Virus record (IMG/VR): IMGVR_UViG_3300025450_001231
DNA length: 64,000 nt
DNA from: a virus
Taxonomy: Duplodnaviria; Caudoviricetes
Reading direction: 5' to 3' (one strand)
This document shows, in pieces, positions 20,345 to 42,376 of the stretch. The notes under the pieces are model-generated. The model made no database searches and was not told the DNA's origin. It worked only from the letters and a program-made list of their open reading frames with translations. How positions within the stretch are numbered: the stretch's first letter is position 1; every line of letters starts with the position of its first letter. A program made the position numbers and the translations under genes.

Positions 20345-20643
20345 TGGATCAAATATCAAATGCATTTGTCGATATTTATAAATGGGCCGAGCGAGATTAT
20401 CGCGAGTGGCCACTGAGGTTCTGTGTTGAAATATTGGCTTGGGCTATTAGTATTAGTTGTAGCCTCACCATGGCTATTACAGTACCCAATCCTCCTCTTT
20501 TGGCTCTTTACCCTGTTTGGATATCTGGTTGCGCTATGTACGGTTGGGCTAGTTGGACTCGTGGAAGCTTTGGTATGCTTGCTAATTACTGTTTGCTTGT
20601 TAGCATTGACGCTGTGGGGTTATTCAGGATGATCACTCAATGA
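20344..20643 (+). CDS. Small membrane protein
   Basis: Three hydrophobic segments. Confidence 0.65.
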   Translation: MDQISNAFVDIYKWAERDYREWPLRFCVEILAWAISISCSLTMAITVPNPPLLALYPVWISGCAMYGWASWTRGSFGMLANYCLLVSIDAVGLFRMITQ

Positions 20644-23318
20644 GTTACGTAGACGCATTATTTGATCGCAAAGGTGATCGCATACACATTGTAGAACGTG
20701 TAAATGGCGAACGGGTATACAAAGAGTATCCTGCCAACTATGTGTTTTATTACGATGACCCAAGGGGCAAGCACCGTACTATTTACGGCACACCTGTTAG
20801 TAGATTTACCACCAACAACGGTAAAGAGTTCCAAAAGGAAATGCGTATACAGGGTAATAAGCGACTATGGGAAAGCGATATCAAACCTGTATTCAAATGC
20901 CTTGAAGAAAACTATTTAGGTGCAGAACCTCCCAAGTTACATACTGCATTTTTTGACATTGAAGTAGACTTTGATCCTAAACGTGGATTTAGTCCAGTTA
21001 GCGATCCGTTCAATGCTATCACTGCCATCAGTGTGTATATGGATTGGTTGGAAAAACTAGTAACGCTGGTAGTACCTCCCAAAGGTATGAGCTGGGCCAC
21101 CGCAGAAGAAATTACTAAAAAGTTTGATGACTGCTATATCTTCGAACGTGAGGAAGATATGTTGGATACATTTCTTAACCTAATAGACGATGCAGATATC
21201 CTAAGCGGTTGGAACTCGGAAGGCTATGATATTCCCTATACCACTGGACGCATTACTCGTGTGCTCAGCAAAGACGACACACGCAGATTATGCTTGTGGG
21301 GACAATATCCCAATCAAAGAATGTTTGAACGCTATGGTACAGAAAGCGTAACATTTGATTTAGTTGGTAGAGTCCACTTGGACTATATGCAACTGTATCG
21401 CAAGTATACATATGAAGAACGCCACAGTTATAGCTTGGATGCTATTTCTGAATATGAACTAGGAGAACGCAAAACACAATACGAAGGCACATTAGATCAG
21501 TTGTACAACAAGGATTTTCCAACGTTTATTACTTATAATCGCCAGGATACCATGTTGTTATCACGATTGGATAAGAAACTAAGATTCTTAGACTTAGCAA
21601 ATACCATTGCTCACGATAACACGGTGTTATTGATGACCACAATGGGCGCAGTAGCAACAACAGAACAGGCAATTATCAATGAAGCACACAGTCAAGGATT
21701 GGTCGTACCTAACAGGAAACATAGAGAAGAAGAATCAGACACAGAGTCGCAGGCCGCAGGTGCCTATGTTGCTTATCCCAAAGTCGGAATGCACGACTAC
21801 ATCGGAGCAATTGACATCAACTCGCTCTATCCCTCGGCTATTCGAGCCCTTAATATGGGACCAGAAACAATTATTGGACAGCTGAAACCTGTAATGACTG
21901 ACCACTACATCAAAGAAAAGATGTCCAGTGGTTCTAGTTTTGCAGCTGCTTGGGAGGGATTGTTTGGCAGCTTTGAATACGAAGCAGTTATGCGTGGCGA
22001 TGCCGGAACTGAAATTACTGTTGAGTGGGAAGCGGATGGTACCAGTGATGTAATGAGTGCTGCTGATATTTGGCGACTGGTATTTGACAGCAACAAGCCT
22101 TGGACTATTAGTGCCAATGGCACATTGTTTACCTATGAGAAAAAAGGTATTATCCCGGGACTGCTAGAACGGTGGTATGCTGAACGTAAACAGATGCAGG
22201 CCAAGCTCAAAGAAGCTATTGCGGCCGGAGACAAGGCCGCAGAAGAATACTGGGACAAACGACAACTGGTTAAGAAGATTAACTTGAATAGTCTGTATGG
22301 TGCTATTTTGAATCCAGGTTGTAGATTCTTTGATCATCGTATTGGACAAAGTACTACACTAACTGGCAGAACTATTGCTAAACATATGGATAGTTTTGTA
22401 AATGAAGCTATCACTGGAAAATATGATCACGTGGGTGATGCTATTATCTATGGTGATACTGACTCAGTTTATTTTACTGCTTGGCCTGCTATCAAAGATG
22501 ATGTGGCAGCCGGTCGTATGGAATGGAATAAGGATACTTGTATTCAGGTATATGATAATATTGCTGATCAAGTCAATGATTCATTCCCAGGATTTATGGA
22601 ACGTGCTTGCCATTGCCCCCGTGAGATGGGCGCTATTATCAAAGGTGGCCGAGAACTTATTGCCACTAAAGGTCTTTTTATTAAAAAGAAACGATACGCA
22701 GTATTGATCTTTGACAAAGAAGGCAAGCGACAAGATGTTGGCGGTAAGCCAGGTAAAGTTAAAGCCATGGGCTTGGACTTGAAGCGTAGCGATACTCCCA
22801 AAGTAGTGCAAGACTTTTTAAGTGAAATCTTGTTAGATGTGCTAACTGGTACAGAAAAAGAAGACATTTATAAAAAGGTCAAAGACTTTAAGTTATTGTT
22901 CCAAGACCGCCCGGCTTGGGAAAAAGGCACACCCAAACGTGTCAACAACTTGACCAAGTATACTGCCGAAGAAGCAAGACTTGGTAAAGCCAATATGCCC
23001 GGACACGTTCGTGCTGCTATGAACTGGAACAATCTGAAACGTATGTACGGTGACAACTATAGTATGGGCATTGTTGATGGTATGAAGACCATCGTATGTA
23101 AACTCAAAGATAATCCACTGGGCTACACCAGCGTAGGATATCCCACTGATGAAACACACATTCCACAGTGGTTCAAAGATTTACCATTTGATGATAACCT
23201 AATGGAATCCACCATTGTAGATCAAAAGGTAGACAACCTGTTGGGAGTATTGAACTGGCAAATTGCCGAAAATACTGACATCAGTTCAACCTTTGCTGAT
23301 TTATTCACTTTTGAATAA
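20640..23318 (+). CDS. polB: Family B DNA polymerase (T4 gp43-like)
   Basis: ExoI FFDIEVD, ExoII GWNSEGYDIPY, region II DINSLYPS, region III KKINLNSLYG, region I YGDTDS, KKRYA. Confidence 0.97.
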   Translation: MSYVDALFDRKGDRIHIVERVNGERVYKEYPANYVFYYDDPRGKHRTIYGTPVSRFTTNNGKEFQKEMRIQGNKRLWESDIKPVFKCLEENYLGAEPPKLHTAFFDIEVDFDPKRGFSPVSDPFNAITAISVYMDWLEKLVTLVVPPKGMSWATAEEITKKFDDCYIFEREEDMLDTFLNLIDDADILSGWNSEGYDIPYTTGRITRVLSKDDTRRLCLWGQYPNQRMFERYGTESVTFDLVGRVHLDYMQLYRKYTYEERHSYSLDAISEYELGERKTQYEGTLDQLYNKDFPTFITYNRQDTMLLSRLDKKLRFLDLANTIAHDNTVLLMTTMGAVATTEQAIINEAHSQGLVVPNRKHREEESDTESQAAGAYVAYPKVGMHDYIGAIDINSLYPSAIRALNMGPETIIGQLKPVMTDHYIKEKMSSGSSFAAAWEGLFGSFEYEAVMRGDAGTEITVEWEADGTSDVMSAADIWRLVFDSNKPWTISANGTLFTYEKKGIIPGLLERWYAERKQMQAKLKEAIAAGDKAAEEYWDKRQLVKKINLNSLYGAILNPGCRFFDHRIGQSTTLTGRTIAKHMDSFVNEAITGKYDHVGDAIIYGDTDSVYFTAWPAIKDDVAAGRMEWNKDTCIQVYDNIADQVNDSFPGFMERACHCPREMGAIIKGGRELIATKGLFIKKKRYAVLIFDKEGKRQDVGGKPGKVKAMGLDLKRSDTPKVVQDFLSEILLDVLTGTEKEDIYKKVKDFKLLFQDRPAWEKGTPKRVNNLTKYTAEEARLGKANMPGHVRAAMNWNNLKRMYGDNYSMGIVDGMKTIVCKLKDNPLGYTSVGYPTDETHIPQWFKDLPFDDNLMESTIVDQKVDNLLGVLNWQIAENTDISSTFADLFTFE

Positions 23319-23377: not shown

Positions 23378-24109
23378 ATGAAAGACCACCTTTTAGACAT
23401 CGTACAACATACACACAGCCTCGGAGGCATTGATATTGCTAAAGTTACAGGCACAGAAGATAATACCATTTTAGAAGCACTTTCTGAAAATCGTAGCATC
23501 ATTCTGCAGGCCAAATTCAAAGGACCAGTAGCAGATTTTATTGGAGTATTTGGTATGCCTAATCTCAGCAAACTAAACACTATTTTGAATATTCCAGAAT
23601 ACAAAGAAGACGCAGTTATTACTGTTACTCGCCAAACCAAAGGCGAAGATAATGTACCAGTAGGCGTACACTTTGAAAACAAAGCTGGTGACTTTAAGAA
23701 TGATTATCGTTTTATGGCAGAAGCTATTGTAAGTGAGCAATTGAAAAGTGTTAAAATGAAATCTGTTAAATGGATTGTAGACTTTGTGCCTTCTAATAAC
23801 AGTTTGCAAAGATTGAAATTCCAAGCCAGTGCTAATAGTGAAGAGCCTAATTTTTCTGTAAAAACAGAAGGCACGGATCTTAAATTTTACTTTGGCGATC
23901 ACAGTAGCCACGCAGGAGACTTTGTGTTCCAAAGCGGTATCAGTGGCAAGTTGACTAAAACTTGGAGCTGGCCAGTTGCAGCAGTTACTAGCATTTTGAG
24001 CTTGCCCGGTGACAAAACATTTAAGATCAGTGACGAAGGTGTTGCAATGATTACTGTAGACAGTGGCATTGCTGACTACAACTATATGTTACCTGCACAA
24101 ACAAAATGA
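23378..24109 (+). CDS. Probable sliding clamp (gp45/PCNA-like)
   Basis: 243 aa alternating beta/alpha pattern directly after polB, with a clamp loader in the window; inferred from size and context. Confidence 0.5.
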   Translation: MKDHLLDIVQHTHSLGGIDIAKVTGTEDNTILEALSENRSIILQAKFKGPVADFIGVFGMPNLSKLNTILNIPEYKEDAVITVTRQTKGEDNVPVGVHFENKAGDFKNDYRFMAEAIVSEQLKSVKMKSVKWIVDFVPSNNSLQRLKFQASANSEEPNFSVKTEGTDLKFYFGDHSSHAGDFVFQSGISGKLTKTWSWPVAAVTSILSLPGDKTFKISDEGVAMITVDSGIADYNYMLPAQTK

Positions 24110-25671
24110 TCCGAGACGACTTAACCAGTAAGCAAAGCGACTATGCGGTATTTTTACCAGCACTCAGTAGCTTTTATGGCACTTACATAGGCAAACAAAG
24201 GCACGATCCCAACTACATAGATCCTGCTCGTATACCTGCACAATTTGAAAATGGAATTGAGGGCCTTAACTGGTTAAACAGTAAAGAAGGATACTTTCAT
24301 TACAAATGGGCATTGTATAGTGCAGGGCACGCCAATTTGGATGTTAATAAATTCGATCCCAAAGAAGATATGGTTCGCAATCGTGATCCCAATACCTTTG
24401 TATTGGGCGATAGTGGCGGATTCCAAATTGGTAAAGGGGTATGGGAAGGCGATTGGAAAGATCCCAATTGTCCCAAAGCTATGAAGAAACGTAGCCAAGT
24501 ATTAAGCTGGATGGATGCTTATATGGATCGCGGTATGACCCTGGATATTCCAGCGTGGGTAGCCCGTAGTCCTGCAGGCCAAAAGGCCACTGGCATTTAC
24601 TCATATCAAGATGCAGTTGATGCTACCTACATCAACAACGAATACTTTATGAACAATCGTACAGGTCGTTGCAAGTTCTTGAATGTGCTACAAGGCGAGG
24701 ATCACACTCAAGCAGATGATTGGTATGAACGTGTTAAAAAGTTCTGCGATCCCAAACAATACAACCGTCCGTTTGAAGGATGGGCTATGGGTGGACAGAA
24801 TATGTGTGACATACATCTTACACTTAGAAGATTGGTTGCACTGCGCTTTGATGGCCTGTTAGAAAAAGGTCTACACGATTGGATGCACTTCTTGGGCACC
24901 AGTAAACTCGAGTGGGCCACGTTGTTAACTGATATTCAACGTGCTGTTCGCAAATATCATAACAGCCAATTTACCATCAGCTTTGACTGTGCAAGTCCAT
25001 TCTTGGCAACTGCCAACGGACAGATCTACTATGATATCACTACTCCGGATCGTGGCAAGTGGAGCTATCAAATGCAACCCAGCGTTGATAATAAAAAGTA
25101 TGCTACAGACACAAGGCAGTTTGGTGATGCACTATTGCAAGACCGAATATTTGATACTTTTGTAGAAAGCCCAGTTAGTCTTAGAACACTAATCAAAGAT
25201 GTTTGTATATACAAACCCGGTGATCTAAATAAGATTGGTAAAGAAGGTAAAACTTCTTGGGATAGTTTCAGCTATGCCATTCAAATGGGTCATAATGTTT
25301 GGACACATATCGAAGCAGTTCAACGTGCCAATAGAGCATACGACAGTGGTAGTTATCCAAATATGTTGGTAGCCAGTAAAATGAATGGCAAAAAATTCCA
25401 ACAGTATGATCGCCATTTTTTCAGAGACATTGTTGACGCTATATTTGAAACCAGTGATCGTGGTCGTGCAGAAGAACTAATCGAACACTATAACAAATAT
25501 TGGAAAGCCATTCCTGGAACTCGTGGTTATACCGGTGAAAATACGCAAAATAGCAACACTATGTTCAATCAATTGTTTAGTACTGTTGACGATAATTCAG
25601 ATGATGTGTATAATACAAGAGATAACAGCGGATTAGATGAAACGAAACTTATAGAATTGGAGACTTTATAA
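24106..25671 (+). CDS. dpdA: TGT-fold guanine transglycosylase, DpdA-like (DNA 7-deazaguanine insertase)
   Basis: TGT motifs in order: VLGDSGGFQ, MTLDIP, NVLQG, GWAMGG, HFLG, ISFDCASP, MGHNV. The tRNA-TGT CxCxxC zinc site is absent; folE/queD/queE lie nearby. Confidence 0.8.
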   Translation: MIRDDLTSKQSDYAVFLPALSSFYGTYIGKQRHDPNYIDPARIPAQFENGIEGLNWLNSKEGYFHYKWALYSAGHANLDVNKFDPKEDMVRNRDPNTFVLGDSGGFQIGKGVWEGDWKDPNCPKAMKKRSQVLSWMDAYMDRGMTLDIPAWVARSPAGQKATGIYSYQDAVDATYINNEYFMNNRTGRCKFLNVLQGEDHTQADDWYERVKKFCDPKQYNRPFEGWAMGGQNMCDIHLTLRRLVALRFDGLLEKGLHDWMHFLGTSKLEWATLLTDIQRAVRKYHNSQFTISFDCASPFLATANGQIYYDITTPDRGKWSYQMQPSVDNKKYATDTRQFGDALLQDRIFDTFVESPVSLRTLIKDVCIYKPGDLNKIGKEGKTSWDSFSYAIQMGHNVWTHIEAVQRANRAYDSGSYPNMLVASKMNGKKFQQYDRHFFRDIVDAIFETSDRGRAEELIEHYNKYWKAIPGTRGYTGENTQNSNTMFNQLFSTVDDNSDDVYNTRDNSGLDETKLIELETL

Positions 25672-25880
25672 TGGTAGAAAATGCAACTAACATTTTGGCG
25701 ATGACCATACTTAGCGGATGTGCAGTAGTTTTGGCAATTATGTTTATTATCTTAATTAACAATTTGTTACATAAGTATTGGAAACCATTGGGTTGGTTCA
25801 GTGCGTGGGGTGTTGCACCAAGATTTGTGACTACCGAAGACGCCAAGCAAGACCCTGCAATGGATCCCAATCATAAATGA
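25671..25880 (+). CDS. Small single-TM protein
   Basis: 69 aa with a long hydrophobic helix. Confidence 0.55.
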   Translation: MVENATNILAMTILSGCAVVLAIMFIILINNLLHKYWKPLGWFSAWGVAPRFVTTEDAKQDPAMDPNHK

Positions 25881-26749
25881 AAGCACTTGTTGTTGGCTTA
25901 GGTATAGGACAGTTGTACAAAACTGTTTTAACCAATCTCGGTTATGAAGTAATAACTGTAGACTCCAATATTGCAAAAGGTGCAGACTTACCTACAGTAG
26001 ATTCTGCAGTAATAGCACACGCACCTTTTGATATTACATTTGTTTGCACACCAAATCATACACATTTTGAATTGGCCGCAAAGGTTGCACCCTACAGTAA
26101 AATTGTATTCATCGAAAAACCCGGAGTATCAAATAGTTTCAGTTGGACTAATTTGGTAACTGTGTTTAAGAAAACACGTTTTATGATGGTCAAGAACAAT
26201 ATGTGGCGCAGTAATATTGCCGAGTTACAATCGTTGGCCAGCCAATCTGATACAGTAAAGATACAATGGCTTAGGCATAATTGTATCCCTAATCCTGGCA
26301 GTTGGTTTACTACAAAACGATTAGCATTTGGTGGTGTTAGTCGAGACTTGATGCCACATTTGTTAAGCATATACATTGCTCTAAATCCCAATTGGCGTAA
26401 AGTGTCTGCAACCAACAGAAATGCAGTTACAAATTGGAAACTAGCAGATATCGAAAGTACAGAGTACGGCACAGTTAACTACAGTGGAACTTATGATGTA
26501 GACGACCGTTGTACTATTAACTTTGGCGATAAATGGGCTTTGGTTGCAGATTGGCGTACGCTCGAAGAGGACAACAGCTCAATCGATTTTATTGCTAATA
26601 CAAACACCAATGTGGAATTAGGTTGGTGTCCTGAAGATGCGTATACTGCAATGATTAAAGATGCAGTCGCTAATATTAATAATCATCAATTCTGGTTAGA
26701 TCAGTTTGAAATTGATACTTGGATTCACGAACAAATAGAAAATCTATGA
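25877..26749 (+). CDS. Gfo/Idh/MocA-family NAD(P) oxidoreductase
   Basis: LVVGLGIG Rossmann motif, VCTPNHTH, VFIEKP, GGVSRDLMPH. Confidence 0.85.
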   Translation: MKALVVGLGIGQLYKTVLTNLGYEVITVDSNIAKGADLPTVDSAVIAHAPFDITFVCTPNHTHFELAAKVAPYSKIVFIEKPGVSNSFSWTNLVTVFKKTRFMMVKNNMWRSNIAELQSLASQSDTVKIQWLRHNCIPNPGSWFTTKRLAFGGVSRDLMPHLLSIYIALNPNWRKVSATNRNAVTNWKLADIESTEYGTVNYSGTYDVDDRCTINFGDKWALVADWRTLEEDNSSIDFIANTNTNVELGWCPEDAYTAMIKDAVANINNHQFWLDQFEIDTWIHEQIENL

Positions 26750-27696
26750 CCAACAGAATTTTATATACCAACGGACAAGGTGAATTTGCAGAAACCGTAT
26801 ACGATAAACCTCCAGTGGGCGAATACGAAATCGAAGTTCGATCAGTGTTAACCGGGGTATGTCGCAGTGATGTGGATATGATGACGGGCAGTTTTGGTCC
26901 GCTACCTTTGAATATGAGTGGACACGAAGGCCTTGGTCAAGTCACTGCAGTGGGCAAAGGTATCTACGACATTAAAATTGGCGATTATGTTGCCACACGC
27001 GGTGAGCCGGCTTATGCTGATTCTTATAATGTTCGAATTAACGAATTTGTGCGTGTGCCATCAGCAGAACCTAAATACATATTAGAACCTGTGGCCTGTG
27101 GTATTAATATTATACAACAACCTATTAGGGAAATAGCAGAACGCAGTGGCCCGGGTAAACGATTGGTAATATTAGGTAGCGGATTCCTTGCGTGGGTTGC
27201 GTATAACACTATTAAATTATTGCATTTAGACTTTGATATAACTGTAGTCGGTCATAGCAATAAAGATCTTTGGGGTAGTGCACTCAAAGATGACGCCAAA
27301 GTTGGTCATAGCAATAAAGAGCAGTGGAGTAGTGTACTTAAAGATACTGCCGAAGGCACTTACGATGTGGTAATTGATCTAAGTGGTAATACCAATGTAT
27401 TCGAAAGTGATATGGTAAATGCCGAAGCATTGATTGTGTTTGGTGCACAAAAAATGCTTACAACTGATTTCTCCAATGTGTTGTGGAAAGCCTGTACTGT
27501 TATATTCCCAAGTCCAAGGACCAAAAGGTTTATTCAGTGTATGGAAGATGCAGCATATTGGATAGAAATGGGCGATTTAGTCGTTGACAGTTTCTGGACT
27601 AAAGGCTATAATAGAGACACTGAGTGGCAAAATGCATTCAGAGATTCATTAACCCGCCCTGAGAATTATTCAAGGGGCTACATTTATTGGAAGTAA
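26746..27696 (+). CDS. MDR (zinc alcohol/polyol dehydrogenase-like) oxidoreductase
   Basis: GVCRSD, GHEGLGQV, IKIGDYV, EPVAC, LVILGSGFL; start ATG 26746 (ATGA overlap). Confidence 0.8.
   Translation: MTNRILYTNGQGEFAETVYDKPPVGEYEIEVRSVLTGVCRSDVDMMTGSFGPLPLNMSGHEGLGQVTAVGKGIYDIKIGDYVATRGEPAYADSYNVRINEFVRVPSAEPKYILEPVACGINIIQQPIREIAERSGPGKRLVILGSGFLAWVAYNTIKLLHLDFDITVVGHSNKDLWGSALKDDAKVGHSNKEQWSSVLKDTAEGTYDVVIDLSGNTNVFESDMVNAEALIVFGAQKMLTTDFSNVLWKACTVIFPSPRTKRFIQCMEDAAYWIEMGDLVVDSFWTKGYNRDTEWQNAFRDSLTRPENYSRGYIYWK
27247..27354 (+). repeat. 54-bp in-frame tandem duplication within the MDR gene
   Basis: 27247-27300 vs 27301-27354, 43/54 identical (VGHSNKDLWGSALKDDAK / VGHSNKEQWSSVLKDTAE). Confidence 0.85.
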
Positions 27697-27697
27697 T

Positions 27698-28297
27698 ATG
27701 GCACTTGATACAGATAGCCGTAAGATGATTACCTACTTTGTAGGTACAGAAGTAGAAAACACCCCAATGAAGAATGAAACTACATTATTTGTAGTAGGCA
27801 TTCAACCAGTAGAAGACATCATTGCAATTGTCAATGAGTCATTAAAAGATCCTAATCCAAAAAATCATATCAAAAATATTTACTTTGGTACAAGCCAAAG
27901 TTTCCATCCCGAGAACGCATACGAATGGGCTGCGTGGGATGATATGATCAAACCTTTGTTGATCAAAGACTACTGGGTGACTTTAGACTTTGGTGTTGAA
28001 TATGCTCGAGAACTACACGAGAACGGTTGGTGCGAATACAACACATTCATCCCTATGATCAGTGTTAAGATTCCCTATATCAAGCTCTATAACTATAATG
28101 CTACACTAAAGATCGACGACAACACTTGGGGAGATACAAACCCCGGTGTTTGGTGCCATCCCTTAAACGAACTGCTAACCAGAAACGTCTACACAGACTG
28201 GCGTGAGTATGTTGGTGATACACCAGTGGGTGTGCCTGCCAAAGTTGAATTCGAAGATATTATACAACCACCTAAAATTAAGGCAAAAAAGAAATGA
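27698..28297 (+). CDS. Hypothetical protein within the deazaguanine cluster
   Basis: 199 aa, closely packed between the MDR gene and the QueD-like gene. Confidence 0.7.
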   Translation: MALDTDSRKMITYFVGTEVENTPMKNETTLFVVGIQPVEDIIAIVNESLKDPNPKNHIKNIYFGTSQSFHPENAYEWAAWDDMIKPLLIKDYWVTLDFGVEYARELHENGWCEYNTFIPMISVKIPYIKLYNYNATLKIDDNTWGDTNPGVWCHPLNELLTRNVYTDWREYVGDTPVGVPAKVEFEDIIQPPKIKAKKK

Positions 28298-28740
28298 TTA
28301 ATCAAGATCAACGTGCACAAATAGATAGAATTATGGCGGCTGCAGATCGTATGATCTCAGTTACATTCCAAAAGGAAGGCATTCACTGCTATCCAGCAGC
28401 TGCCACAGATCCAATGTTGGCTACAGGAGATATGTATGATGTTAGTTTTCTTGGCACTCCGCATCGTCACATTTTCCACTTCAGAGTCTATATTAGTGTT
28501 ACTCATAATGACCGCGATATTGAATTTATACAGTTCAAACGCTGGTTAGAACACTTATACTCTAATGGTACATTGGAATTAGATTATAAAAGTTGCGAAA
28601 TGATCAGTGATGATCTTTACTTACAGATCGCTGCTAAGTATCCTAACCGTACAGTTTGGATCGAAGTTAGCGAAGACGGCGAAAATGGTGCGGTAATCAA
28701 ATACAATACCACAAGACCCGATTTATCAGTTGTTATTTAA
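28294..28740 (+). CDS. Second T-fold QueD paralogue (DpdL-like)
   Basis: LGTPHRHIFHFRV (LxxxHRHxF in place of the QueD C..HGH motif), RDIEF, KSCEM. Confidence 0.6.
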   Translation: MINQDQRAQIDRIMAAADRMISVTFQKEGIHCYPAAATDPMLATGDMYDVSFLGTPHRHIFHFRVYISVTHNDRDIEFIQFKRWLEHLYSNGTLELDYKSCEMISDDLYLQIAAKYPNRTVWIEVSEDGENGAVIKYNTTRPDLSVVI

Positions 28741-28755
28741 TAATAAGGAAAACAA

Positions 28756-28965
28756 ATGTCACAACCAAAATGGCTTGAAAAATATCTAAGAATGAAACCC
28801 GAAGTCGATAGACTGTTTGATGACTTGGAAGGCTACAAAGATTTTTGTAGAATGAATATGTTGAAGTACGATGAGAAAGATTTATATCGCAGTGACCAAT
28901 ATCGCAAGTACGAGCGTTACAGGCACTATATGAATAAACAAGCAGAGTACAACAATCAGAGATAA
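28756..28965 (+). CDS. Hypothetical protein
   Basis: 69 aa, SD AAGGA. Confidence 0.6.
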   Translation: MSQPKWLEKYLRMKPEVDRLFDDLEGYKDFCRMNMLKYDEKDLYRSDQYRKYERYRHYMNKQAEYNNQR

Positions 28966-28966
28966 T

Positions 28967-30037
28967 ATGACCATCTTCTTAGTTGATTTAGAAGCGGTAG
29001 AAACAAGGTATACGGGTCAATGGAAGACTCATATACCTGATTTACTTACAAAGGCAGGACACAATGTCACGATTATATCGGGCCCTAGAGATATTCCTAG
29101 CGCCACTACTCCTGGTGCATTTCTCAATTTTGGGGGCACTAATATCTATAAGGCAAGCCAAGTTGAACAACTTGGAAGACTTTTTTGTACAGGAGCCGTC
29201 CAGGCTGGCGATCATTTTATCTTTACTGATGCCTGGCATCCTGGTATCATAAACCTAAAGTATATGAGTGAGTTGTTGGGAATCCCAGTAACTACACACG
29301 GACTTTGGCACGCTGGCAGTTATGATCCTCAAGACTTTTTAGGACGATTAGTCGGAGATAAACCTTGGGTTAGATTTGCTGAAAAAAGTTTCTTTGAAGC
29401 GTTTGATCACAACTACTTTGCCACAGACTTTCACATCGATATGTTTTGTAAAAATCTATTACATATCGTAATGCCGCAAACAATTGAAGGTTTCAAAGAG
29501 ATTGGAAAAATTGTTCGCACAGGTTGGCCGATGGAGTATATGGACGATACATTGTCTGCATATAAAAATATGACCAAGCGAGATCTTGTACTGTTTCCAC
29601 ATCGTATTGCTCCCGAGAAGCAAGTGGAAATTTTTAGAGATTTGGCCACTCACTTGCCACAATACGAGTTTGTGGTATGTCAGGATCAACAGTTAACCAA
29701 AGATCAATATCATCGATTATTGGGCGAATCCAAATTGGTTTTTAGTTGTAGTTTACAAGAAACACTGGGAATTGGTTGCTACGAAGGTTCGCTAGTAGAT
29801 GCTATCCCTATGGTTCCAGATAGACTTAGCTATAGTGAAATGTATTACGATACATTCAAATACCCAAGCGAATGGACAGAAAGTTTCGAAGCATACGAAG
29901 CGCATTGTCCAGAACTTTGTGAGAAGATTATCCAATATATGGATAACTATCCCCACTTTTTGCCCAAATTAAAACAACAAACTGTTGCGCTAATTGAAAA
30001 CTTTTTCAGTTGCAATAATTTTCTAAATAAGTTATAA
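28967..30037 (+). CDS. GT-B (group 1-like) glycosyltransferase
   Basis: FTDAWHPG, HAGSYDPQDF, FPHRIAPEKQ, LQETLGIGCYEG (Ex7E), PMVPDRLSY. Confidence 0.8.
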   Translation: MTIFLVDLEAVETRYTGQWKTHIPDLLTKAGHNVTIISGPRDIPSATTPGAFLNFGGTNIYKASQVEQLGRLFCTGAVQAGDHFIFTDAWHPGIINLKYMSELLGIPVTTHGLWHAGSYDPQDFLGRLVGDKPWVRFAEKSFFEAFDHNYFATDFHIDMFCKNLLHIVMPQTIEGFKEIGKIVRTGWPMEYMDDTLSAYKNMTKRDLVLFPHRIAPEKQVEIFRDLATHLPQYEFVVCQDQQLTKDQYHRLLGESKLVFSCSLQETLGIGCYEGSLVDAIPMVPDRLSYSEMYYDTFKYPSEWTESFEAYEAHCPELCEKIIQYMDNYPHFLPKLKQQTVALIENFFSCNNFLNKL

Positions 30038-30038
30038 T
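30010..30038 (+). promoter_or_regulatory. sigma70-type promoter with nested late motif upstream of folE
   Basis: TTGCAA-17 nt-TATAAT; TAAATA at 30024-30029. Confidence 0.6.
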
Positions 30039-30057
30039 AAACAAAGTTAGGAACTAT

Positions 30058-30798
30058 ATGAAATTAAAACCAGTATCATACGACAACATAGACGAAGGCG
30101 GCTATGAAGAATCTAGTTTAGCAGATGTTCTTCGTTTTAAGATGAAACGAGAAGGCAAACGCTTTTGGGCTAACGATAACATTAGTGAATATCTAAGCGA
30201 AGATGATAAAGAACGCCTAATAGAAGAAGCAACTGAAGCATTTGAGCAAGTACTGAAAACTTTACTGATCGACACAGATACCGATCCTAGTAGTAAAGGT
30301 ACTGCTCGACGACTGGCAAAAATGTACATTAATGAGGTGATGAGTGGAAGATATGATCCAGCCCCGGACGCAACAGCGTTCCCAAATGATTCGCAAGACC
30401 GTTACGAAGGTATGCTTGTTGTTCGCAGTGAACTGCGTAGTATGTGCAGTCATCATCACCAACCTGTGGCTGGTGTGGCTTATATTGGTATTATTGCTGC
30501 CAATAAACTTATTGGCTTATCTAAGTATTCCAGAATTGCACAGTGGTGTGCAAGACGAGGCACTCTCCAGGAGGAGCTTTGTAATGAAATTGCTAAAGAA
30601 ATAGGTCGAGCCACTGGTGCAAATGATATTGGTGTTTATGTTCAAATGACACACGGATGTTGCGAGAATCGAGGCATTATGGCACACAGTAGTTTAACAC
30701 AAACATCTGTGCTTAAAGGTGCATTCAAAGATGACTCTGGTACTAAGAAAGAGTTTTTTGATAATATTAAACTACAACAGGACTTTGCCCCAAGATGA
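30058..30798 (+). CDS. folE: GTP cyclohydrolase I
   Basis: TARRLAKMY, SMCSHHHQP, IGLSKYSRI, RRGTLQEEL, HGCCENRG. Confidence 0.93.
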   Translation: MKLKPVSYDNIDEGGYEESSLADVLRFKMKREGKRFWANDNISEYLSEDDKERLIEEATEAFEQVLKTLLIDTDTDPSSKGTARRLAKMYINEVMSGRYDPAPDATAFPNDSQDRYEGMLVVRSELRSMCSHHHQPVAGVAYIGIIAANKLIGLSKYSRIAQWCARRGTLQEELCNEIAKEIGRATGANDIGVYVQMTHGCCENRGIMAHSSLTQTSVLKGAFKDDSGTKKEFFDNIKLQQDFAPR

Positions 30799-31259
30799 GA
30801 CCATTAGCCCATTTAGGAGTCGGACCTAATTCCGAAGATTATAAATTATATTTGCTAGATCAACAATTATACGATGTGCTCACTGAGAGAGGAGAAAGTA
30901 TATTAGAAGATGCCATGAAAAAATTTATGGGCCACTATTATAACAATCCACCTTTACCAACGCTAATCGAATTAAACGAAAATTTTGATAAATGGTTGAA
31001 TAACAAACAGAATTTAGAAAAATTAAAAGCTCCAAAATCTTTAATAGATATAGCTGAAGAAAACATCACCGAGCTTTATCAAGACATTCAAAATAAAAAG
31101 TACGGATCAATGTCTGATTCTGTATATAAAAAATATCGAGAAGCTTATTTTGCAAAAGAAAACGAATGGCATAATTCAAAAGAAAAAGAAAAATTGTTGG
31201 ATGAAATCTATTCGTATAACGAAACTGAATATAATAAAATTAAAAACAAAATCAATTAA
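30795..31259 (+). CDS. Hypothetical AT-rich protein
   Basis: 154 aa, Lys/Asn/Glu-rich. Confidence 0.6.
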   Translation: MRPLAHLGVGPNSEDYKLYLLDQQLYDVLTERGESILEDAMKKFMGHYYNNPPLPTLIELNENFDKWLNNKQNLEKLKAPKSLIDIAEENITELYQDIQNKKYGSMSDSVYKKYREAYFAKENEWHNSKEKEKLLDEIYSYNETEYNKIKNKIN

Positions 31260-31454
31260 ATGATTAAAAAAGCATTTGCAAGAATAGTCAGCGAAGTGTT
31301 ATACTACTTAGGACACTGGATAAGTTTTCCAATGAGTCGTTTTGATTGGGATTGGTTATATCCTGTGTACAATCAATTGATGACGTGGAGTATCGATACA
31401 CAAGATTGGGCAGGAAATGATAAACCGTGGGAGAACGTAGATGAGCACAGCTAA
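31260..31454 (+). CDS. Hypothetical Trp-rich small protein
   Basis: 64 aa, closely packed. Confidence 0.55.
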   Translation: MIKKAFARIVSEVLYYLGHWISFPMSRFDWDWLYPVYNQLMTWSIDTQDWAGNDKPWENVDEHS

Positions 31455-31677
31455 AGCAATAAGCGATGATCTAATAAAAAAACTTAGAAATCCTAATGTA
31501 AAAATGTATACAGTCAAAAGACAGATGTCCAAAAAATGGTTACCAAAAGGTGTTGCACCTTTTGATATTCATATTAAAAATGGTACAGGAACTTTCGAAG
31601 TACTTGCAGAAAGTCAAGAATCTGCAGAGTCAATGGTTGATGAGTTTTTAAGCGGGCAAGAGAATCATAATGATTAA
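31441..31677 (+). CDS. Hypothetical protein
   Basis: 78 aa, overlaps its neighbours. Confidence 0.55.
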   Translation: MSTAKAISDDLIKKLRNPNVKMYTVKRQMSKKWLPKGVAPFDIHIKNGTGTFEVLAESQESAESMVDEFLSGQENHND

Positions 31678-32065
31678 AAGCCTTAGTAGCAGCGGCGATT
31701 GGTTGAATATAGCTGGCTCTGGCACCGGTGCCTCAATCTACATAGACAACTACAAGTTACAGCAAGGCCTAGCTGGGCAGGTTCGATATACTGGCGACCA
31801 TTTTGAAGTCAACGATGGCAACAGTTGGCGTCCTTTGTATGACAGTTATGCTACGATAGATGTTACTCATAAAGCTGATGCTGTGTTAAAATGGGCCTTC
31901 GAAAAAATGACCCAAGAACAAGAAGCAAAAGAATTGGCGACGAAACATCCAGCAGTTCAAGATGCTTTAGACTCTGTAAAAGATGCAGAAGACAAATTAA
32001 AAGTTATAATAGCATTGGTCAATGAAGAAGACCAAGGTATCGAAATATATCCACCAACAAGGTAA
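31670..32065 (+). CDS. Hypothetical protein
   Basis: 131 aa with a C-terminal coiled coil. Confidence 0.65.
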   Translation: MIKSLSSSGDWLNIAGSGTGASIYIDNYKLQQGLAGQVRYTGDHFEVNDGNSWRPLYDSYATIDVTHKADAVLKWAFEKMTQEQEAKELATKHPAVQDALDSVKDAEDKLKVIIALVNEEDQGIEIYPPTR

Positions 32066-32072
32066 AAATAAA

Positions 32073-32354
32073 ATGTTTGATAGTATTAAAAGAAAACTTG
32101 GCAATTGGTTACTTAGTAGCTCAAAAAATAGCATCGAACTAGAATCTTCAGCGAAATACTCAATTTCTCGTCATGATATTGACGGGCGTATTAGATTTGA
32201 ACTTACACCTGCTCGTGGAGGCACTATTGTTAGTATTAGAACTTACGATCATGCTAAAGATGAGCAACACGATGTTCTGCACGTTATCCATGAAAACGAT
32301 GATCTCAGTAAAGCGGTTGCAGATTTAGTTAGTTTAGAAATTTTAAGAATGTAA
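32073..32354 (+). CDS. Hypothetical protein
   Basis: Likely start ATG 32073 (MFDSIKRKLG). Confidence 0.6.
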   Translation: MFDSIKRKLGNWLLSSSKNSIELESSAKYSISRHDIDGRIRFELTPARGGTIVSIRTYDHAKDEQHDVLHVIHENDDLSKAVADLVSLEILRM

Positions 32355-32366
32355 AAGGAAATCATT

Positions 32367-32819
32367 ATGGTCTTGCTAAAGTTACTCGAAAGATTAGGAC
32401 GTAAAAGAATAATTATGGACCGAATTGACGATGAACCTTACTTAGAAAGATATTATGTATTCCTTAAAGAACGCACTTGGTTTCCCTTTAATGTATTTGT
32501 GCACAGGTTTCTTAAATCAGATCCTGATGATGTACACGATCATCCTTGGCCTTATGCTACCCTTATCCTTAAAGGCGGCTACTACGAATGGTTGCCACAG
32601 TTTAATAATCTTGGACAAAAAATAGGCGAAATAGCAGTATGGCGTGGTCCTGGTAGTTTTAGAATTTGTGGTGCCAAAAGCTATCATCGTATCGAAATTG
32701 ACGCCAATGTAGAAACTTGGACATTGTTTATGCCTGGCCCAAAACAACGCGAATGGGGATTCTTAACTCGCAAAGGGTGGATACAACACGAACAATATCT
32801 CTCAGCCAGAGCAAAATAA
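32367..32819 (+). CDS. Cupin-fold protein
   Basis: VHRFLKSDPDDVHDHPW...LKGGYYE...YHRIE...TWTLF metal-binding cupin pattern. Confidence 0.7.
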   Translation: MVLLKLLERLGRKRIIMDRIDDEPYLERYYVFLKERTWFPFNVFVHRFLKSDPDDVHDHPWPYATLILKGGYYEWLPQFNNLGQKIGEIAVWRGPGSFRICGAKSYHRIEIDANVETWTLFMPGPKQREWGFLTRKGWIQHEQYLSARAK

Positions 32820-32850
32820 TATAACCACTATAGCCTGCATAAAAACAAGA

Positions 32851-32930
32851 TAAATACACAAGCGGCCTTTGAGCATCATCCCGCTATACAAATTCTGCTG
32901 CCTATGCTACAATTAACATAGGAGAAAAGC
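32851..32930 (+). promoter_or_regulatory. Late promoter plus structured 5' leader of queD (preQ1-I-like pseudoknot and SD-sequestering stem)
   Basis: TAAATA 32851-32856; P1 AGCGG/CCGCT; A-rich tail; loop AGCA complementary to TGCT 32896-32899; CCTATG/CATAGG stem overlaps the SD. Confidence 0.55.
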
Positions 32931-33428
32931 ATGACACCCGTAACTTACAAATATACCTCAACAAAAGAATATGTGGACGCATTTCCTTGCGCTTACAGAC
33001 AATGGCGTGCAGACAGTCATTGCAATACTATTCACGGATACAGTTTTAGTATGAAATTTTATTTTGGTACTGACCAACTAGATGTTCGCAATTGGGTTGC
33101 CGATTACGGCGGCTTAAAAGAACTAAAGAAAATATTAGAGAGTCAATTTGATCATACGCTGCTAGTAGCAGAAGATGAACCAGAAATGGAAACATACAAG
33201 TTACTAGAATCAAAGGGGTTAGCAAAACTAACTATTTTACCAAAACTTGGTTGCGAGGGACTGGCTGATATGCTTTACAAGTATGTCAACAGTGTTTACA
33301 TTCCTGATATGTGGGGCCCAGGTGAAGCAGAAAGACTTTGGTGCTATAGAGTTGAAGTAAGAGAAACACAAGCTAATATGGCATTCAGAGAAGGTCATAG
33401 AGAATGGAATGAGGATTTATTTGTATGA
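32931..33428 (+). CDS. queD: 6-carboxy-5,6,7,8-tetrahydropterin synthase
   Basis: SHCNTIHGYS, DYGGLKELK, FDHTLL, VRET. Confidence 0.85.
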   Translation: MTPVTYKYTSTKEYVDAFPCAYRQWRADSHCNTIHGYSFSMKFYFGTDQLDVRNWVADYGGLKELKKILESQFDHTLLVAEDEPEMETYKLLESKGLAKLTILPKLGCEGLADMLYKYVNSVYIPDMWGPGEAERLWCYRVEVRETQANMAFREGHREWNEDLFV

Positions 33429-33766
33429 TCAAATACCATATTAATAACGTGGGCGGAGAAGTTATCAAAGATAACGAAACTTATACACTCAAAGATAATA
33501 AAACATTAAAAAACCTTGTGTTGAGCTCTACTAATTTACATAGAGGTATGAGTACACGTGGGCATCGTCACCCCGGGCAAGAAGAAATTTATATTTTTGT
33601 TTTGGGACACGGCCAAATGATTGTGGGAGATGAAACAGATGAGCCCTTTAGAGTCAGTGCAGGAGATATTGTACTAATCCCTGACGGGGCATTTCATCGT
33701 GTGATCAACGACGGCGACATCAATTTACTATTCAACTGTGTATTTGATGGTAAAAGAAATCATTAA
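33425..33766 (+). CDS. Cupin domain protein
   Basis: GHRHPGQEEIYIFVLGHG...AGDIVLIPDGAFHRV. Confidence 0.85.
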   Translation: MIKYHINNVGGEVIKDNETYTLKDNKTLKNLVLSSTNLHRGMSTRGHRHPGQEEIYIFVLGHGQMIVGDETDEPFRVSAGDIVLIPDGAFHRVINDGDINLLFNCVFDGKRNH

Positions 33767-33926
33767 ACAAGTTTGGCGCCTTTGGGCAAAATCGTTAGGT
33801 GAAAAAGCAGGTGATACGGACAAAGAAGCTGACCGTATTGCTTGCATTCGTACTGCAATTGTGTTATCATATATCATTACAAACTGCTTTATCGTAGCAG
33901 GTGTTATTCGACATTGGAATCAATAA
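33747..33926 (+). CDS. Small membrane protein
   Basis: C-terminal TM helix; likely start ATG 33747. Confidence 0.55.
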   Translation: MVKEIIKQVWRLWAKSLGEKAGDTDKEADRIACIRTAIVLSYIITNCFIVAGVIRHWNQ

Positions 33927-33927
33927 A

Positions 33928-34287
33928 ATGCTAACTTCAAAATTAAACAATCATATAGAAAAACGTGTTGTTCGAGAATTAGAAAAAAATTTACCAGTAG
34001 CAGTAAACTATTCTTCTACAGACAAAGTAGCCGAAGCATTAATTATACTAGCCGAAGAATGTGCAGAAGTTGTACAGGAAGTCTGCAAGATACAACGATT
34101 TGGTATTGAGTCAACTTCTCATCATACAGGGTTATCGCATAAAGCAACTTTAGCAAAAGAAGTAGCAGATGTATTGGCAATGGTTGATATCCTAGTAGAA
34201 CAAGGTGTAATTACATATAACGAATTAAATCTAGGTAAATTATCAAAAATCGAAAAATTAAAAAAATGGTCAAAGTTATATGAGTAA
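33928..34287 (+). CDS. MazG-like NTP pyrophosphohydrolase
   Basis: LAEECAEV...KEVADV (EExxE / ExxD metal motif). Confidence 0.75.
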   Translation: MLTSKLNNHIEKRVVRELEKNLPVAVNYSSTDKVAEALIILAEECAEVVQEVCKIQRFGIESTSHHTGLSHKATLAKEVADVLAMVDILVEQGVITYNELNLGKLSKIEKLKKWSKLYE

Positions 34288-35128
34288 AATTAAAATTTCA
34301 GAATTATTTTATAGTGTGCAGGGAGAAGGTCGCTATATGGGTGTACCATCTATATTTTTGCGTACATTCGGTTGTAACTTCAAATGCGCTGGCTTTGGAA
34401 TGCCAAGAGGAGAACTAAGTAATGAAACAGATGATATTGCAAGTGTTGTGCAAATGTACAACGATTATAAAGAATTGCCTTTGGTTTCTACAGGCTGTGA
34501 TTCTTATGCTAGTTGGGATCCTCGCTTTAAGCATCTCTCTCCTTTACTTTCTACTGATTCAATTGCCAATTCGATTATGGATATACTTCCTTACAAAGAA
34601 TGGCAAGACGAACATCTTGTAATCACTGGCGGCGAGCCATTGCTAGGTTGGCAACGTCAATATCCTGATTTGCTGGATCATCCTAAAATGCATGGACTCA
34701 AAGAGATTACATTTGAAACCAATGGCACTCAAAAGTTAACCCCAGAATTCAAACATTACTTGGATGACTGGACTATTGCCAACTGGGATAGAGAAATCAC
34801 ATTCAGTGTAAGTGCCAAACTTCCTGCCAGTGGAGAATCGTGGGAGGATGCTATTAAGCCCGAAGTTGTATGTGAATATGAACAAGTTGGTACTGCTTAC
34901 CTTAAATTAGTGGTTGCAACTGAACAAGATATCGCTGACGCAGAATGTGCAGTAGGAGCATTTCGTTCAGCAGGATTTAAGGGACACATTTATCTAATGC
35001 CTGTTGGTGGTGTGGAAAGTGTTTATACATTAAACGCAAAGAATGTAGCACTGGCCGCTATGAAGCGTGGATGGCGTTACAGTGATAGATTGCAAGTGCC
35101 ATTGTTTAAGAACGAGTGGGGCACCTGA
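34280..35128 (+). CDS. queE: 7-carboxy-7-deazaguanine synthase (radical SAM)
   Basis: ISELFYSVQGEG, FLRTFGCNFKC...GCDS, VITGGEPLL, ITFETNG, SVSAKL, RLQV. Confidence 0.88.
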   Translation: MSKIKISELFYSVQGEGRYMGVPSIFLRTFGCNFKCAGFGMPRGELSNETDDIASVVQMYNDYKELPLVSTGCDSYASWDPRFKHLSPLLSTDSIANSIMDILPYKEWQDEHLVITGGEPLLGWQRQYPDLLDHPKMHGLKEITFETNGTQKLTPEFKHYLDDWTIANWDREITFSVSAKLPASGESWEDAIKPEVVCEYEQVGTAYLKLVVATEQDIADAECAVGAFRSAGFKGHIYLMPVGGVESVYTLNAKNVALAAMKRGWRYSDRLQVPLFKNEWGT

Positions 35129-40856: not shown

Positions 40857-41966
40857 ATGGCTAAAGATAGTATCAGCGAACACCGCACAGTGACCTCAGA
40901 AACAGGTCGTCGTGCTATTATTAAATGTTTCCAAAAACAACGTCCAGTGTTTCTTTGGGGTCCTCCCGGCATTGGTAAATCAGAAGTTGTGGCAAGTATT
41001 GCTGCAGAAATGAAAGGTGCAATGATTGACCTTCGTCTTGCACAAATGGAGCCCACAGATCTGCGCGGTATTCCATATTTTAACAAAGACCTAGGTCTTA
41101 TGGATTGGGCGGCTCCCATTGATTTGCCCGATGCAGAATTTGCCAGCAAATATCCTGTCGTGGTACTTTTCTTAGATGAAATGAACTCTGCGGCACCCAG
41201 CATTCAAGCAGCTGCATATCAGTTGATTTTGAATCGTAGAATTGGTAAGTATCACCTGCCTGACAATGTGGTAGTTATTGCCGCTGGTAATAGAGAGTCG
41301 GATAAAGGTGTTACTTATCGTATGCCTGCTCCGTTGGCTAATCGTTTTGTTCACTTGGAAATGCGTCCAGATCACGCTGCCTGGGAACAATGGGCTGTGT
41401 TGAATCAAATTCACAAAGATGTTGTGGGCTATGTAGGTTTTGCCAAACAAGACTTATATGACTTTGATCCCCGTAGCTCAAGTCGTAGTTTTGCTACACC
41501 ACGTTCGTGGACTTTTGTTAGTGAGTTGTTGGCAGATGACGACTGTACTGACAGTGAGTTAACTGACTTGGTAGCAGGTGCAGTTGGTGAAGGTGTTGCA
41601 GTTAAGTTTATGGCACACCGCAAGATTGCTGGACAATTGCCCAAGCCCAGTGAAATCCTTAAAGGTAAAGTACACGAGCTTAAAATCAAAGAAGTTAGTG
41701 CTATGTATTCTTTGGTTATTAGTATGTGTTATGAGCTTAAGGATGAAGCTGGTAAGAATGGCGGCAAGCCAACTACAGAATGGCACGAAATGGCCGATAA
41801 CTTCTTTAAGTTTATGATGGATAATTTCACCACAGAACTTACTGTTATGGGCGCTCGTGTTGCATTGACTACTTATGCACTACCGTTTATCCCTGGTAAG
41901 CTCAAACACTTTGATGAGTTCCACAAGCGTTTCGGTAAGTACATTGTGGCGGCAAGCCAAAAGTAA
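40857..41966 (+). CDS. MoxR-family AAA+ ATPase
   Basis: WGPPGIGKS, DLRGIP, LFLDEMN, AAGNR, PAPLANRF, TPRSW; TATAAT at 40820-40825 and SD AAGGAG. Confidence 0.9.
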   Translation: MAKDSISEHRTVTSETGRRAIIKCFQKQRPVFLWGPPGIGKSEVVASIAAEMKGAMIDLRLAQMEPTDLRGIPYFNKDLGLMDWAAPIDLPDAEFASKYPVVVLFLDEMNSAAPSIQAAAYQLILNRRIGKYHLPDNVVVIAAGNRESDKGVTYRMPAPLANRFVHLEMRPDHAAWEQWAVLNQIHKDVVGYVGFAKQDLYDFDPRSSSRSFATPRSWTFVSELLADDDCTDSELTDLVAGAVGEGVAVKFMAHRKIAGQLPKPSEILKGKVHELKIKEVSAMYSLVISMCYELKDEAGKNGGKPTTEWHEMADNFFKFMMDNFTTELTVMGARVALTTYALPFIPGKLKHFDEFHKRFGKYIVAASQK

Positions 41967-42026
41967 AAGTTATTGGGGCAGAGAGTTTTCCTCCTCCTTT
42001 CTCTCTCGTAAGTCCTCGATTTTATT

Positions 42027-42329
42027 ATGCAATTAAATAAATTAGATGGCAGGCATTCCGGAAAAACGTGGTTTTCACACTATGTTAATTCCTCTCCTAC
42101 TTTAAGTGCCCGTGAAATTCGAATACAAGAATTCATAAATTGGAGAAACTGGTGTCAAGAAACATTTGGACCAGGTTGTGAAAGAAATTGGGCCACTAAT
42201 TATCGAGTGGTACACGGTGTTGCTCCTCGATGGGGATGGATCACAGATGAGCGCATTGTAGGCACTTTCCCAAGATTATATTTGGCTACAGAAGCAGAAG
42301 TGTCGCTTTTTACACTAAAATGGGGTTGA
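42027..42329 (+). CDS. Hypothetical protein ending in LKWG
   Basis: 100 aa ORF between moxR and the VWA gene. Confidence 0.6.
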   Translation: MQLNKLDGRHSGKTWFSHYVNSSPTLSAREIRIQEFINWRNWCQETFGPGCERNWATNYRVVHGVAPRWGWITDERIVGTFPRLYLATEAEVSLFTLKWG

Positions 42330-42354: not shown

Positions 42355-42376
42355 TGTATTTTAAGGAGCAGAAATT

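Follow-up and report, generated by a model that had tools for sequence, protein, structure and literature searches.

The window analysed here is a 64-kb fragment (64,000 nucleotides) of a large metagenomic phage genome. At positions 24106-35128 of its + strand, directly behind the gene for the family B DNA polymerase (polB), it carries a module that may exchange guanine in the phage DNA for a modified 7-deazaguanine. The module encodes a divergent protein with the fold of the tRNA-guanine transglycosylases (TGT), the pathway enzymes FolE, QueD and QueE, a QueD paralogue of the DpdL type, a glycosyltransferase (GT) and several accessory proteins. All genes that the initial annotation had listed for this place were found there in the open reading frame (ORF) list and with Pfam, NCBIfam, motifs and structure models, the MazG-like assignment being weak (Table 1).

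The phage is recurrent in the freshwater habitat, with an identical 521-amino acid (aa) TGT-like protein present in 15 freshwater-metagenome contigs of up to 264 kb. By megablast, the DNA of the cluster had no match among phages, and an exact pattern of its DNA did not occur in IMG/VR. Regarding the distribution of the stretch 24106-32000, at least half of its sampled words were present in each of 13 runs from 13 studies (freshwater or lake-water metagenomes, 2017-18), five of which are possible source samples. The module always follows polB, and the polB/clamp-like/RNase H setting of the TGT-like gene is kept in all relatives. The 243-aa protein encoded between polB and the TGT-like gene has homologues annotated as sliding clamp beta in Sinorhizobium phage Phosso (30% identity) and as a structural protein in Pseudomonas phage PA5oct, and is possibly a sliding clamp. 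On the 3' side of QueE follow a DUF2452 protein, a 132-aa protein and a 5'-3' exonuclease/RNase H.

Table 1. Genes of the 7-deazaguanine module and its upstream neighbours, with the basis of each assignment
Feature	Positions	Strand	Basis
Family B DNA polymerase	20640..23318	+	Pfam DNA_pol_B 1.2e-35, exonuclease domain 1.2e-16; syntenic in 80 relatives
243-aa protein, possible sliding clamp	23378..24109	+	Annotation of homologues; no Pfam/NCBIfam match
TGT-fold, DpdA-like protein, 521 aa, divergent zinc-less family	24106..25671	+	AlphaFold2 model and motifs
69-aa ORF	25671..25880	+	ORF of ~62 aa in that position in most relatives
Gfo/Idh/MocA NAD(P) oxidoreductase, lineage-variable accessory	25877..26749	+	Pfam 30.7 bits (cut-off 24)
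Medium-chain dehydrogenase/reductase (MDR), zinc-alcohol-dehydrogenase-like oxidoreductase, lineage-variable accessory	26746..27696	+	ADH_N 38.9 bits (cut-off 23.5)
199-aa protein, no family assigned, co-conserved with the module	27698..28297	+	Synteny
DpdL (QueD paralogue, 148 aa), proposed 7-carboxy-7-deazaguanine (CDG) decarboxylase	28294..28740	+	Motif LGTPHRHIF and tblastn
69-aa basic protein, isoelectric point (pI) 9.0, conserved between DpdL and GT	28756..28965	+	Synteny in relatives
GT-B fold, GT4-like glycosyltransferase, 356 aa	28967..30037	+	AlphaFold2/Foldseek, E-x7-E
GTP cyclohydrolase I (FolE)	30058..30798	+	Pfam 129.9 bits
Five small ORFs (154, 64, 78, 131 and 110 aa)	30795..32354	+	No Pfam/PHROG match; patchy among relatives
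Cupin, PHROG family named 'cysteine dioxygenase', variable accessory	32367..32819	+	phrog_4786, E 1.6e-36
QueD/PTPS (6-carboxy-tetrahydropterin, CPH4, synthase)	32931..33428	+	Pfam PTPS 60.4 bits (cut-off 22.4)
Small metal-type cupin (Cupin_2)	33425..33766	+	Pfam 45.4 bits
MazG-like all-alpha nucleoside triphosphate (NTP) pyrophosphohydrolase, weak call	33901..34287	+	Pfam MazG E 7e-4, 20.3 bits (cut-off 22)
Putative divergent QueE (radical-SAM CDG synthase)	34280..35128	+	Five NCBIfam QueE models, below cut-off

A zinc-less protein with the TGT fold

The 521-aa protein has no match in Pfam (including the TGT family PF01702), NCBIfam, PHROGs or the sequences of the PDB, and a profile of 47 of its diverse relatives recovered no TGT among PDB sequences. 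The AlphaFold2 model computed from the alignment of these relatives has a predicted local distance difference test score (pLDDT) of 89.5 and a predicted template modelling score (pTM) of 0.90, and the best 50 matches returned by Foldseek from the PDB are all tRNA-guanine transglycosylases (E ~2e-6). In structural comparison with VIA-align the Z score was 17.2 for arcTGT, 16.7 for QTRT2, 15.5 for bTGT, 14.9 for the bacterial DpdA 7ui4, which inserts preQ0 into DNA, and 13.7 for Cap10, against 11.7 at most for generic TIM barrels. Invariant in all 47 relatives are D102, S103 and G105 (DSGGFQ), N193, H261, G264 and D294 (SFDCASP), while D147 (LD) is kept in at least 90% of them, and these motifs align with DSGG...LD...VQG...HLLG...SYD in Acidovorax phage ACP17. 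General acid/base and nucleophile aspartates have been described for TGT and DpdA (PMC10164549), to which D102 and D294 would correspond, the assignment being made by motif position and not by structural superposition. With the bacterial DpdA and the TGTs (Z 14.9-17.2) the protein thus has in common the TIM-barrel TGT fold and the positions of the DSGG acid/base, the substrate and the nucleophile Asp. It differs from them in three respects: it has no PF01702 match, it ends in an acidic C-terminal tail of about 100 residues modelled with low confidence, and it lacks CxCx2Cx22H, the structural zinc site that bacterial DpdA shares with the TGTs (PMC10164549). D294 is followed by a single Cys, and the alignment of the 47 relatives has no conserved Cys column, which bears out the earlier description of a TGT fold without zinc site. 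From the model and the motifs we infer that the protein is a DpdA-like base-exchange enzyme, with DNA as its predicted substrate.

The same model could be read as that of an enzyme which, together with the rest of the pathway, modifies tRNA in the manner of the queuosine wobble modification and leaves DNA alone, as arcTGT, QTRT2 and bTGT score slightly above DpdA. We regard this as highly improbable: the protein lacks a zinc site and any PUA or tRNA-binding extension, its gene belongs to the polB/clamp-like/RNase H module in all relatives, the tested phages of the DpdL type carry the base in DNA, and the DNA of PA5oct itself resists five restriction enzymes with G-containing sites (PMC12191111).

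The family to which the protein belongs forms 990 clusters at 50% identity (E <1e-3), and in the 90%-identity collection 7,990 of the 8,000 scored candidates match it at E <=1e-5. Its members in cultured phages, namely the PA5oct-like Pseudomonas jumbo phages, Vibrio phage 2.275.O and Sinorhizobium phage Phosso, are annotated as hypothetical. By hhalign, the family is related to the 424-aa TGT-like protein of ACP17 (96.4%) and weakly to DpdA3 of Cellulophaga phage phiST (62.8%; BFVD E 6e-3). A fusion of the TGT-like protein with the Gfo/Idh/MocA oxidoreductase (hereafter Gfo) in the relatives L035 and L036 was ruled out, since a TAA stop lies between both genes. The existence of a very large TGT-like family without annotation appears to be new, and because it is so large in metagenomes and yet unannotated, many phage genomes may at present be read as unmodified.

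The 7-deazaguanine core

The FolE, QueD and QueE families convert GTP into CDG. In the window, FolE is matched by NCBIfam FolE models at 2.6e-40, below their equivalog cut-offs, and the QueD motif reads CxxxHGY in place of CxxxHGH, as it does in the aligned QueD of phiST and ACP17. The product of the last gene of the module is matched by five NCBIfam QueE models with E values of 4e-14 to 5e-11, the best at 52.8 bits against a cut-off of 206. It has an SVQGEG motif at the N-terminus and shares 31% identity with the PA5oct protein annotated as QueE, all of which suggests a divergent QueE that falls below the curated cut-offs. The 148-aa protein fits the signature LxxxHRHxF, which replaces CxxxHGH, and by tblastn it matches the DpdL of ACP17 (5e-39) and of phiST (7e-11), so that the second QueD paralogue of the initial annotation was correctly likened to DpdL. 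Certain His, Glu and Cys positions are invariant across 12 DpdLs. Cui et al. 2023, who defined DpdL by this signature, proposed it to be a CDG decarboxylase, an activity still unproven (PMC10516641).

The reported absence of QueC and QueF was also confirmed, as tblastn with a phage QueC and a phage QueF found neither in the 64 kb; ArcS was not searched separately. PF06508 (QueC) was likewise not detected in five relatives of 119-189 kb or in the complete genomes of PA5oct, ACP17 and phiST, and was detected in Vibrio phage 2.275.O, which is without DpdL. The window therefore presents DpdL together with FolE, QueD, QueE and a DpdA-like gene and without QueC. For 2'-deoxy-7-deazaguanine (dDG) in phiST, the proposed pathway consists of FolE, QueD, QueE, DpdL and a DNA transglycosylase and does without QueC; phiST has this same core and 100% dDG (PMC10516641), and full dDG is also reported for vibriophage VP1 (bioRxiv 10.1101/2025.10.29.685425). 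Since the same gene set is already published for dDG, the earlier suggestion that the core lies outside the known bases does not hold, and the installed base would be at least of the known dDG type. The likeness to phiST (FolE, QueD, QueE, DpdL, DpdA3) extends to the CxxxHGY QueD, the LxxxHRHxF DpdL, the remote relationship of the TGT-fold enzyme, the placement by replication genes and the presence of a MazG-like gene in the vicinity, which in phiST lies beside DpdL. The differences are that the 521-aa transglycosylase of the window belongs to another branch and that the window adds a conserved GT4, the 199-aa and 69-aa proteins and variable tailoring genes by the transglycosylase.

Some further observations concern DpdL and its surroundings. 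Three relatives (L068, L082 and L088; e.g. L068:12759-13163) encode in the same position a second, divergent type of DpdL with 38-40% identity. DpdL homologues of 33-35% identity lie near QueE- and FolE-like genes in an 804-kb contig of Paenibacillus polymyxa ISL-58 (L110) and in a metagenome-assembled genome (MAG) of Bryobacterales (L106). No TGT-like gene or GT was found within 10 kb of these two, which may belong to a small-molecule deazapurine cluster. A candidate preQ1 riboswitch at 32851-32933 was rejected, having no Rfam match.

A phosphoribosyltransferase (PRTase) of family PF00156 is encoded between FolE and QueE in 31 of 32 relatives, and none was found in the 64-kb window (tblastn, E up to 1). 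Compared with the closest relative, L012, the window lacks 850 bp between cupin and QueD, comprising a 112-aa gene and the PRTase, and has there a spacer of 111 bp (32820-32930). The product of the PRTase might be a deazaguanine nucleotide, or the enzyme might recycle the guanine set free by base exchange. Its frequency raises the alternative that CDG or 7-deazaguanine is turned into a ribonucleotide, the way tubercidin and toyocamycin are made, or into a base glycoside like huimycin, serving as precursor of a deoxynucleoside triphosphate used by the polymerase or as a free antimetabolite, with base exchange of minor importance. The route to tubercidin, which starts from CDG without QueC and employs a PRTase, a decarboxylase and a GMP reductase, is comparable, as some relatives have a GMP reductase together with the PRTase. 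HuiG of huimycin biosynthesis is a precedent for a GT acting on a 7-deazapurine base, and a MazG-like NTPase is present in the module. As in this deazapurine metabolism, a GT is here encoded with FolE/QueD/QueE-type genes, but these actinobacterial clusters have no transglycosylase, the window has no PRTase, and its GT is likened to HuiG by function only. The window dispenses with the PRTase and yet keeps the TGT-like gene, this gene stands behind polB with both catalytic Asp kept in 47 of 47 relatives, and the PRTase could equally serve the salvage of guanine; we therefore think it improbable that the nucleotide or small-molecule route predominates. Beside the PRTase, a gene of the GMP reductase/inosine monophosphate dehydrogenase family occurs at L083:17263-18294 and also in L062, L063 and L094, and in one relative the interval from FolE to QueE includes the gene of a B12-binding radical-SAM enzyme of 675 aa (L046:10708-12735).

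The glycosyltransferase, its partners and the variable slot

The AlphaFold2 model of the 356-aa GT (pLDDT 84) has a GT-B fold with two Rossmann domains. Its nearest structures by Foldseek are BshA, glycogen synthase and PglA (E 6e-9), and it also matches GT4 enzymes of Swiss-Prot. The E-x7-E motif is located in the C-terminal domain (E265-TLGIGCY-E273), and both Glu are invariant in 28 sequences, whose Pfam matches are weak (Glycos_transf_1 in nine and Glyco_transf_4 in four members, best E 2e-3). We collected 85 metagenomic DpdL loci and counted the 57 with at least 2.5 kb on both flanks. In 55 of these, the GT is no more than 6 kb away from DpdL, and the remaining two are bacterial contexts without a TGT-like gene. 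Co-conservation of the GT with the transglycosylase, chosen beforehand as a test that could refute the proposal, is thus observed, also in several cultured phages. The GT is 40% identical to a gene adjoining DpdL in both PA5oct and ACP17 and 51% identical to one adjoining it in Phosso, whereas the distance between DpdL and the corresponding gene (24-27% identity) is 1.4 kb in Xanthomonas phages X1 and BUDD and 2.8 kb in Burkholderia phage BCSR5. Overall, the pairing of GT and DpdL extends over at least six clearly different phage groups, usually as adjacent genes, and the GT accompanies both types of transglycosylase, the 521-aa type and that of ACP17. Neither the phiST-type phages nor Vibrio phage 2.275.O, with its QueC and QueF, has this GT. 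No link of a GT to DpdL was found in the papers searched, and its occurrence across many phage lineages appears to be new.

The two closest cultured counterparts show what accompanies the GT. PA5oct (EST35_0316 to _0322) has the TGT-like protein (37%), the GT, DpdL (56%), the 199-aa protein (43%) and QueE, and ACP17 (ASD50399 to ASD50406) has a remote TGT-like protein, the GT, DpdL (59%), the 199-aa protein (28%) and QueE; both are without QueC. Neither has Gfo, MDR or cupins, unlike the window, and their genes are annotated as hypothetical except QueE, plus QueD and FolE in ACP17. The 199-aa protein occurs in nearly all relatives and also in MAG-binned phage contigs, accompanying the GT in several lineages, and its family has 35 invariant residues. 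No family was found for it in Pfam (to E 10), NCBIfam, PHROG or by profile against the PDB, and two look-ups in the ESM Atlas gave low-feature matches only. Profiles of the TGT-like, GT and 199-aa families against PDB sequences returned nothing useful. Identity of the 199-aa family with the "glycosylase" of Phosso or with a 143-aa protein of X1 was rejected, as hhalign shows no relationship. When dpdA and dpdL of ACP17 alone were introduced into E. coli no dDG was formed, and the authors suggest that unknown enzymes may be needed (PMC10516641). The GT and the 199-aa protein are obvious candidates for these enzymes.

A GT acting on DNA has a precedent in phage T4, whose hydroxymethylcytosine glucosyltransferases are GT-B enzymes that coat a modified phage base with sugar against restriction. 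The target in T4, however, is the hydroxymethyl group of a pyrimidine, whereas in the window the thymidylate synthase is canonical, a hydroxymethylase is absent, and the GT has its best structural matches in GT4. A hydroxymethyl-pyrimidine as target was rejected, the sole ThyA-like gene being the canonical thymidylate synthase.

It may be asked whether the GT has anything to do with the base. The phage could contain plain dDG as phiST does, with the GT, the 199-aa protein, Gfo, MDR and cupins serving host envelope or protein glycosylation or general metabolism and being located in a hot spot of the replication module. The core set is that of phiST with its unadorned dDG, 7-deazaguanine has no handle for O-glycosylation, the GT is acidic, and slots such as the one described below gain and lose genes fast. 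Against this, the GT tracks DpdL in at least six unrelated phage groups and with two TGT types, mostly as its direct neighbour. It is missing exactly where dDG is plain (phiST) and where QueC and QueF replace DpdL, and dpdA and dpdL of ACP17 do not suffice for dDG in E. coli. On balance we find plain dDG rather unlikely.

The region from the TGT-like gene to the 199-aa gene is a slot of variable content, fully covered in 77 relatives. In 56 it contains a small ORF only; the others have one or two radical-SAM enzymes (nine loci), Gfo with MDR (seven), radical SAM, Gfo, a SulP permease and MDR (two), a 255-aa protein without assignment (two) or an S-adenosylmethionine (SAM) methyltransferase (one). 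Apart from the one permease it holds only enzyme-type genes. Gfo is therefore found in nine of the 77, about one in eight, always paired with MDR, and on the tree of the TGT-like protein the pair marks the window's clade of seven and two other places. The radical-SAM inserts require eight changes for nine rows of this tree. The initial annotation had expected the two oxidoreductases to be co-conserved with dpdA, which was not confirmed. Of the two cupins, the Cupin_2 protein has a single homologue elsewhere, beside polB in L101, and the other occurs in about a dozen relatives. Of the sugar-decorated deazaguanine proposed there, the part of the GT stays plausible, as the gene is co-conserved, while that of the oxidoreductases and cupins is weaker, and we found no specific support for a cyclitol.

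The best PDB sequence matches of Gfo are 3e18 and the glycoside 3-oxidoreductase DgpA (E 1e-5 to 1e-6). DgpA acts on the sugar of C-glycosides, and this match, at E ~1e-5, is weakly consistent with sugar tailoring. In MDR only the N-terminal domain was detected, with PDB matches to zinc alcohol dehydrogenases confined to the N-terminal part; on identical contigs, too, the gene is called from the ATG at 26746. Gfo and MDR look like additions specific to a sublineage, in a slot that collects tailoring-type enzymes. The presence of different enzymes in this slot in different sublineages appears to be new, and a role of Gfo, MDR and the cupins in base modification is more speculative than that of the GT. 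The radical-SAM genes of the slot (378-409 aa) come and go between nearly identical backbones; slot contents of relatives are exemplified by L021:6927-8063, L030:9151-11655, L080:8312-12689 and L016:6023-6820.

Several genes outside the module were also noted in the window. A ClpB-like double-AAA protein of 745 aa comes after a DnaJ-like co-chaperone with DnaJ and DnaJ_C domains (7822-10931), an unusual phage cargo, and a 739-aa protein combines cytidylyltransferase-like, dCMP/cytidine deaminase and DUF6321 domains (12903-15122). At 40857-43651 a MoxR-like AAA ATPase and a putative metallopeptidase (DUF2201, VWA-like domain) are encoded close to each other, and dihydrofolate reductase is encoded beside the canonical thymidylate synthase, both above NCBIfam cut-offs (45303-46712). 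The stretch 55686-63998 of the - strand is taken up by a giant ORF (>2,734 aa) that continues beyond the end of the window.

A possible glycosylated 7-deazaguanine

Taken together, these results are compatible with the following pathway. FolE, QueD and QueE would convert GTP into CDG, and, with QueC absent, DpdL would remove the carboxyl group to give 7-deazaguanine, this activity being proposed and never reconstituted. Judging from its fold and motifs, the zinc-less TGT-fold enzyme would then exchange guanine in DNA for 7-deazaguanine by means of the Asp102/Asp294 pair. The GT4 enzyme, probably with the 199-aa protein, would attach a sugar to the deazaguanine, whether this is still the free base or already part of DNA. 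In the sublineage of the window the Gfo/MDR pair may oxidise or reduce that sugar or its donor; other sublineages have radical-SAM or methyltransferase genes in that slot. We estimate at about 0.55 the probability that guanine in the DNA of this phage is replaced in this way by a 7-deazaguanine made from GTP, with the GT adding a sugar. A sugar on the base is reasonably deduced from the linkage of GT and DpdL, though as a separate claim it has somewhat less than an even chance, and with it we infer a final base that goes beyond dDG.

Several points weigh against this interpretation. The QueE and MazG assignments fall below curated cut-offs, and the TGT-like protein does not have the zinc site that characterizes bacterial DpdA. 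The PRTase, present in 31 of 32 relatives and lacking here, indicates that the general pathway may run partly through nucleotides. The co-occurrence counts are not independent, as most loci come from one abundant lineage, and most relatives with the GT have neither Gfo nor MDR. Regarding the chemistry, 7-deazaguanine offers no hydroxyl group as an obvious site for a sugar. Members of the GT family are acidic, with a median pI of 5.6, and the enzyme could act on an acceptor different from the base, although isoelectric points do not discriminate here because polB is acidic too. Finally, the phage is known from assembled short-read contigs alone.

DNA containing 7-deazaguanine is a main way by which phages escape restriction and CRISPR, and few derivatives are known; to our knowledge none of those in DNA bears a sugar. 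Because the GT travels with the QueC-free deazaguanine set in many lineages, the DNA of these phages may carry an undescribed, sugar-bearing substitute of guanine. Extended to all phages with the TGT-like protein, the 199-aa protein, DpdL and GT4 (the freshwater lineage, PA5oct, ACP17, Phosso and X1), the proposal that they carry glycosylated 7-deazaguanine in their DNA, with the slot diversifying the adduct, is a tentative one, and we would sooner doubt than assert it. The cultured phages with the same module make the question directly testable, and a GT locked to DpdL provides a concrete candidate for the "unknown enzymes" that block reconstitution of the DpdL pathway. If true, this would be a new class of purine adduct, and the slot beside the transglycosylase would be an arms-race hot spot in which phages diversify it.

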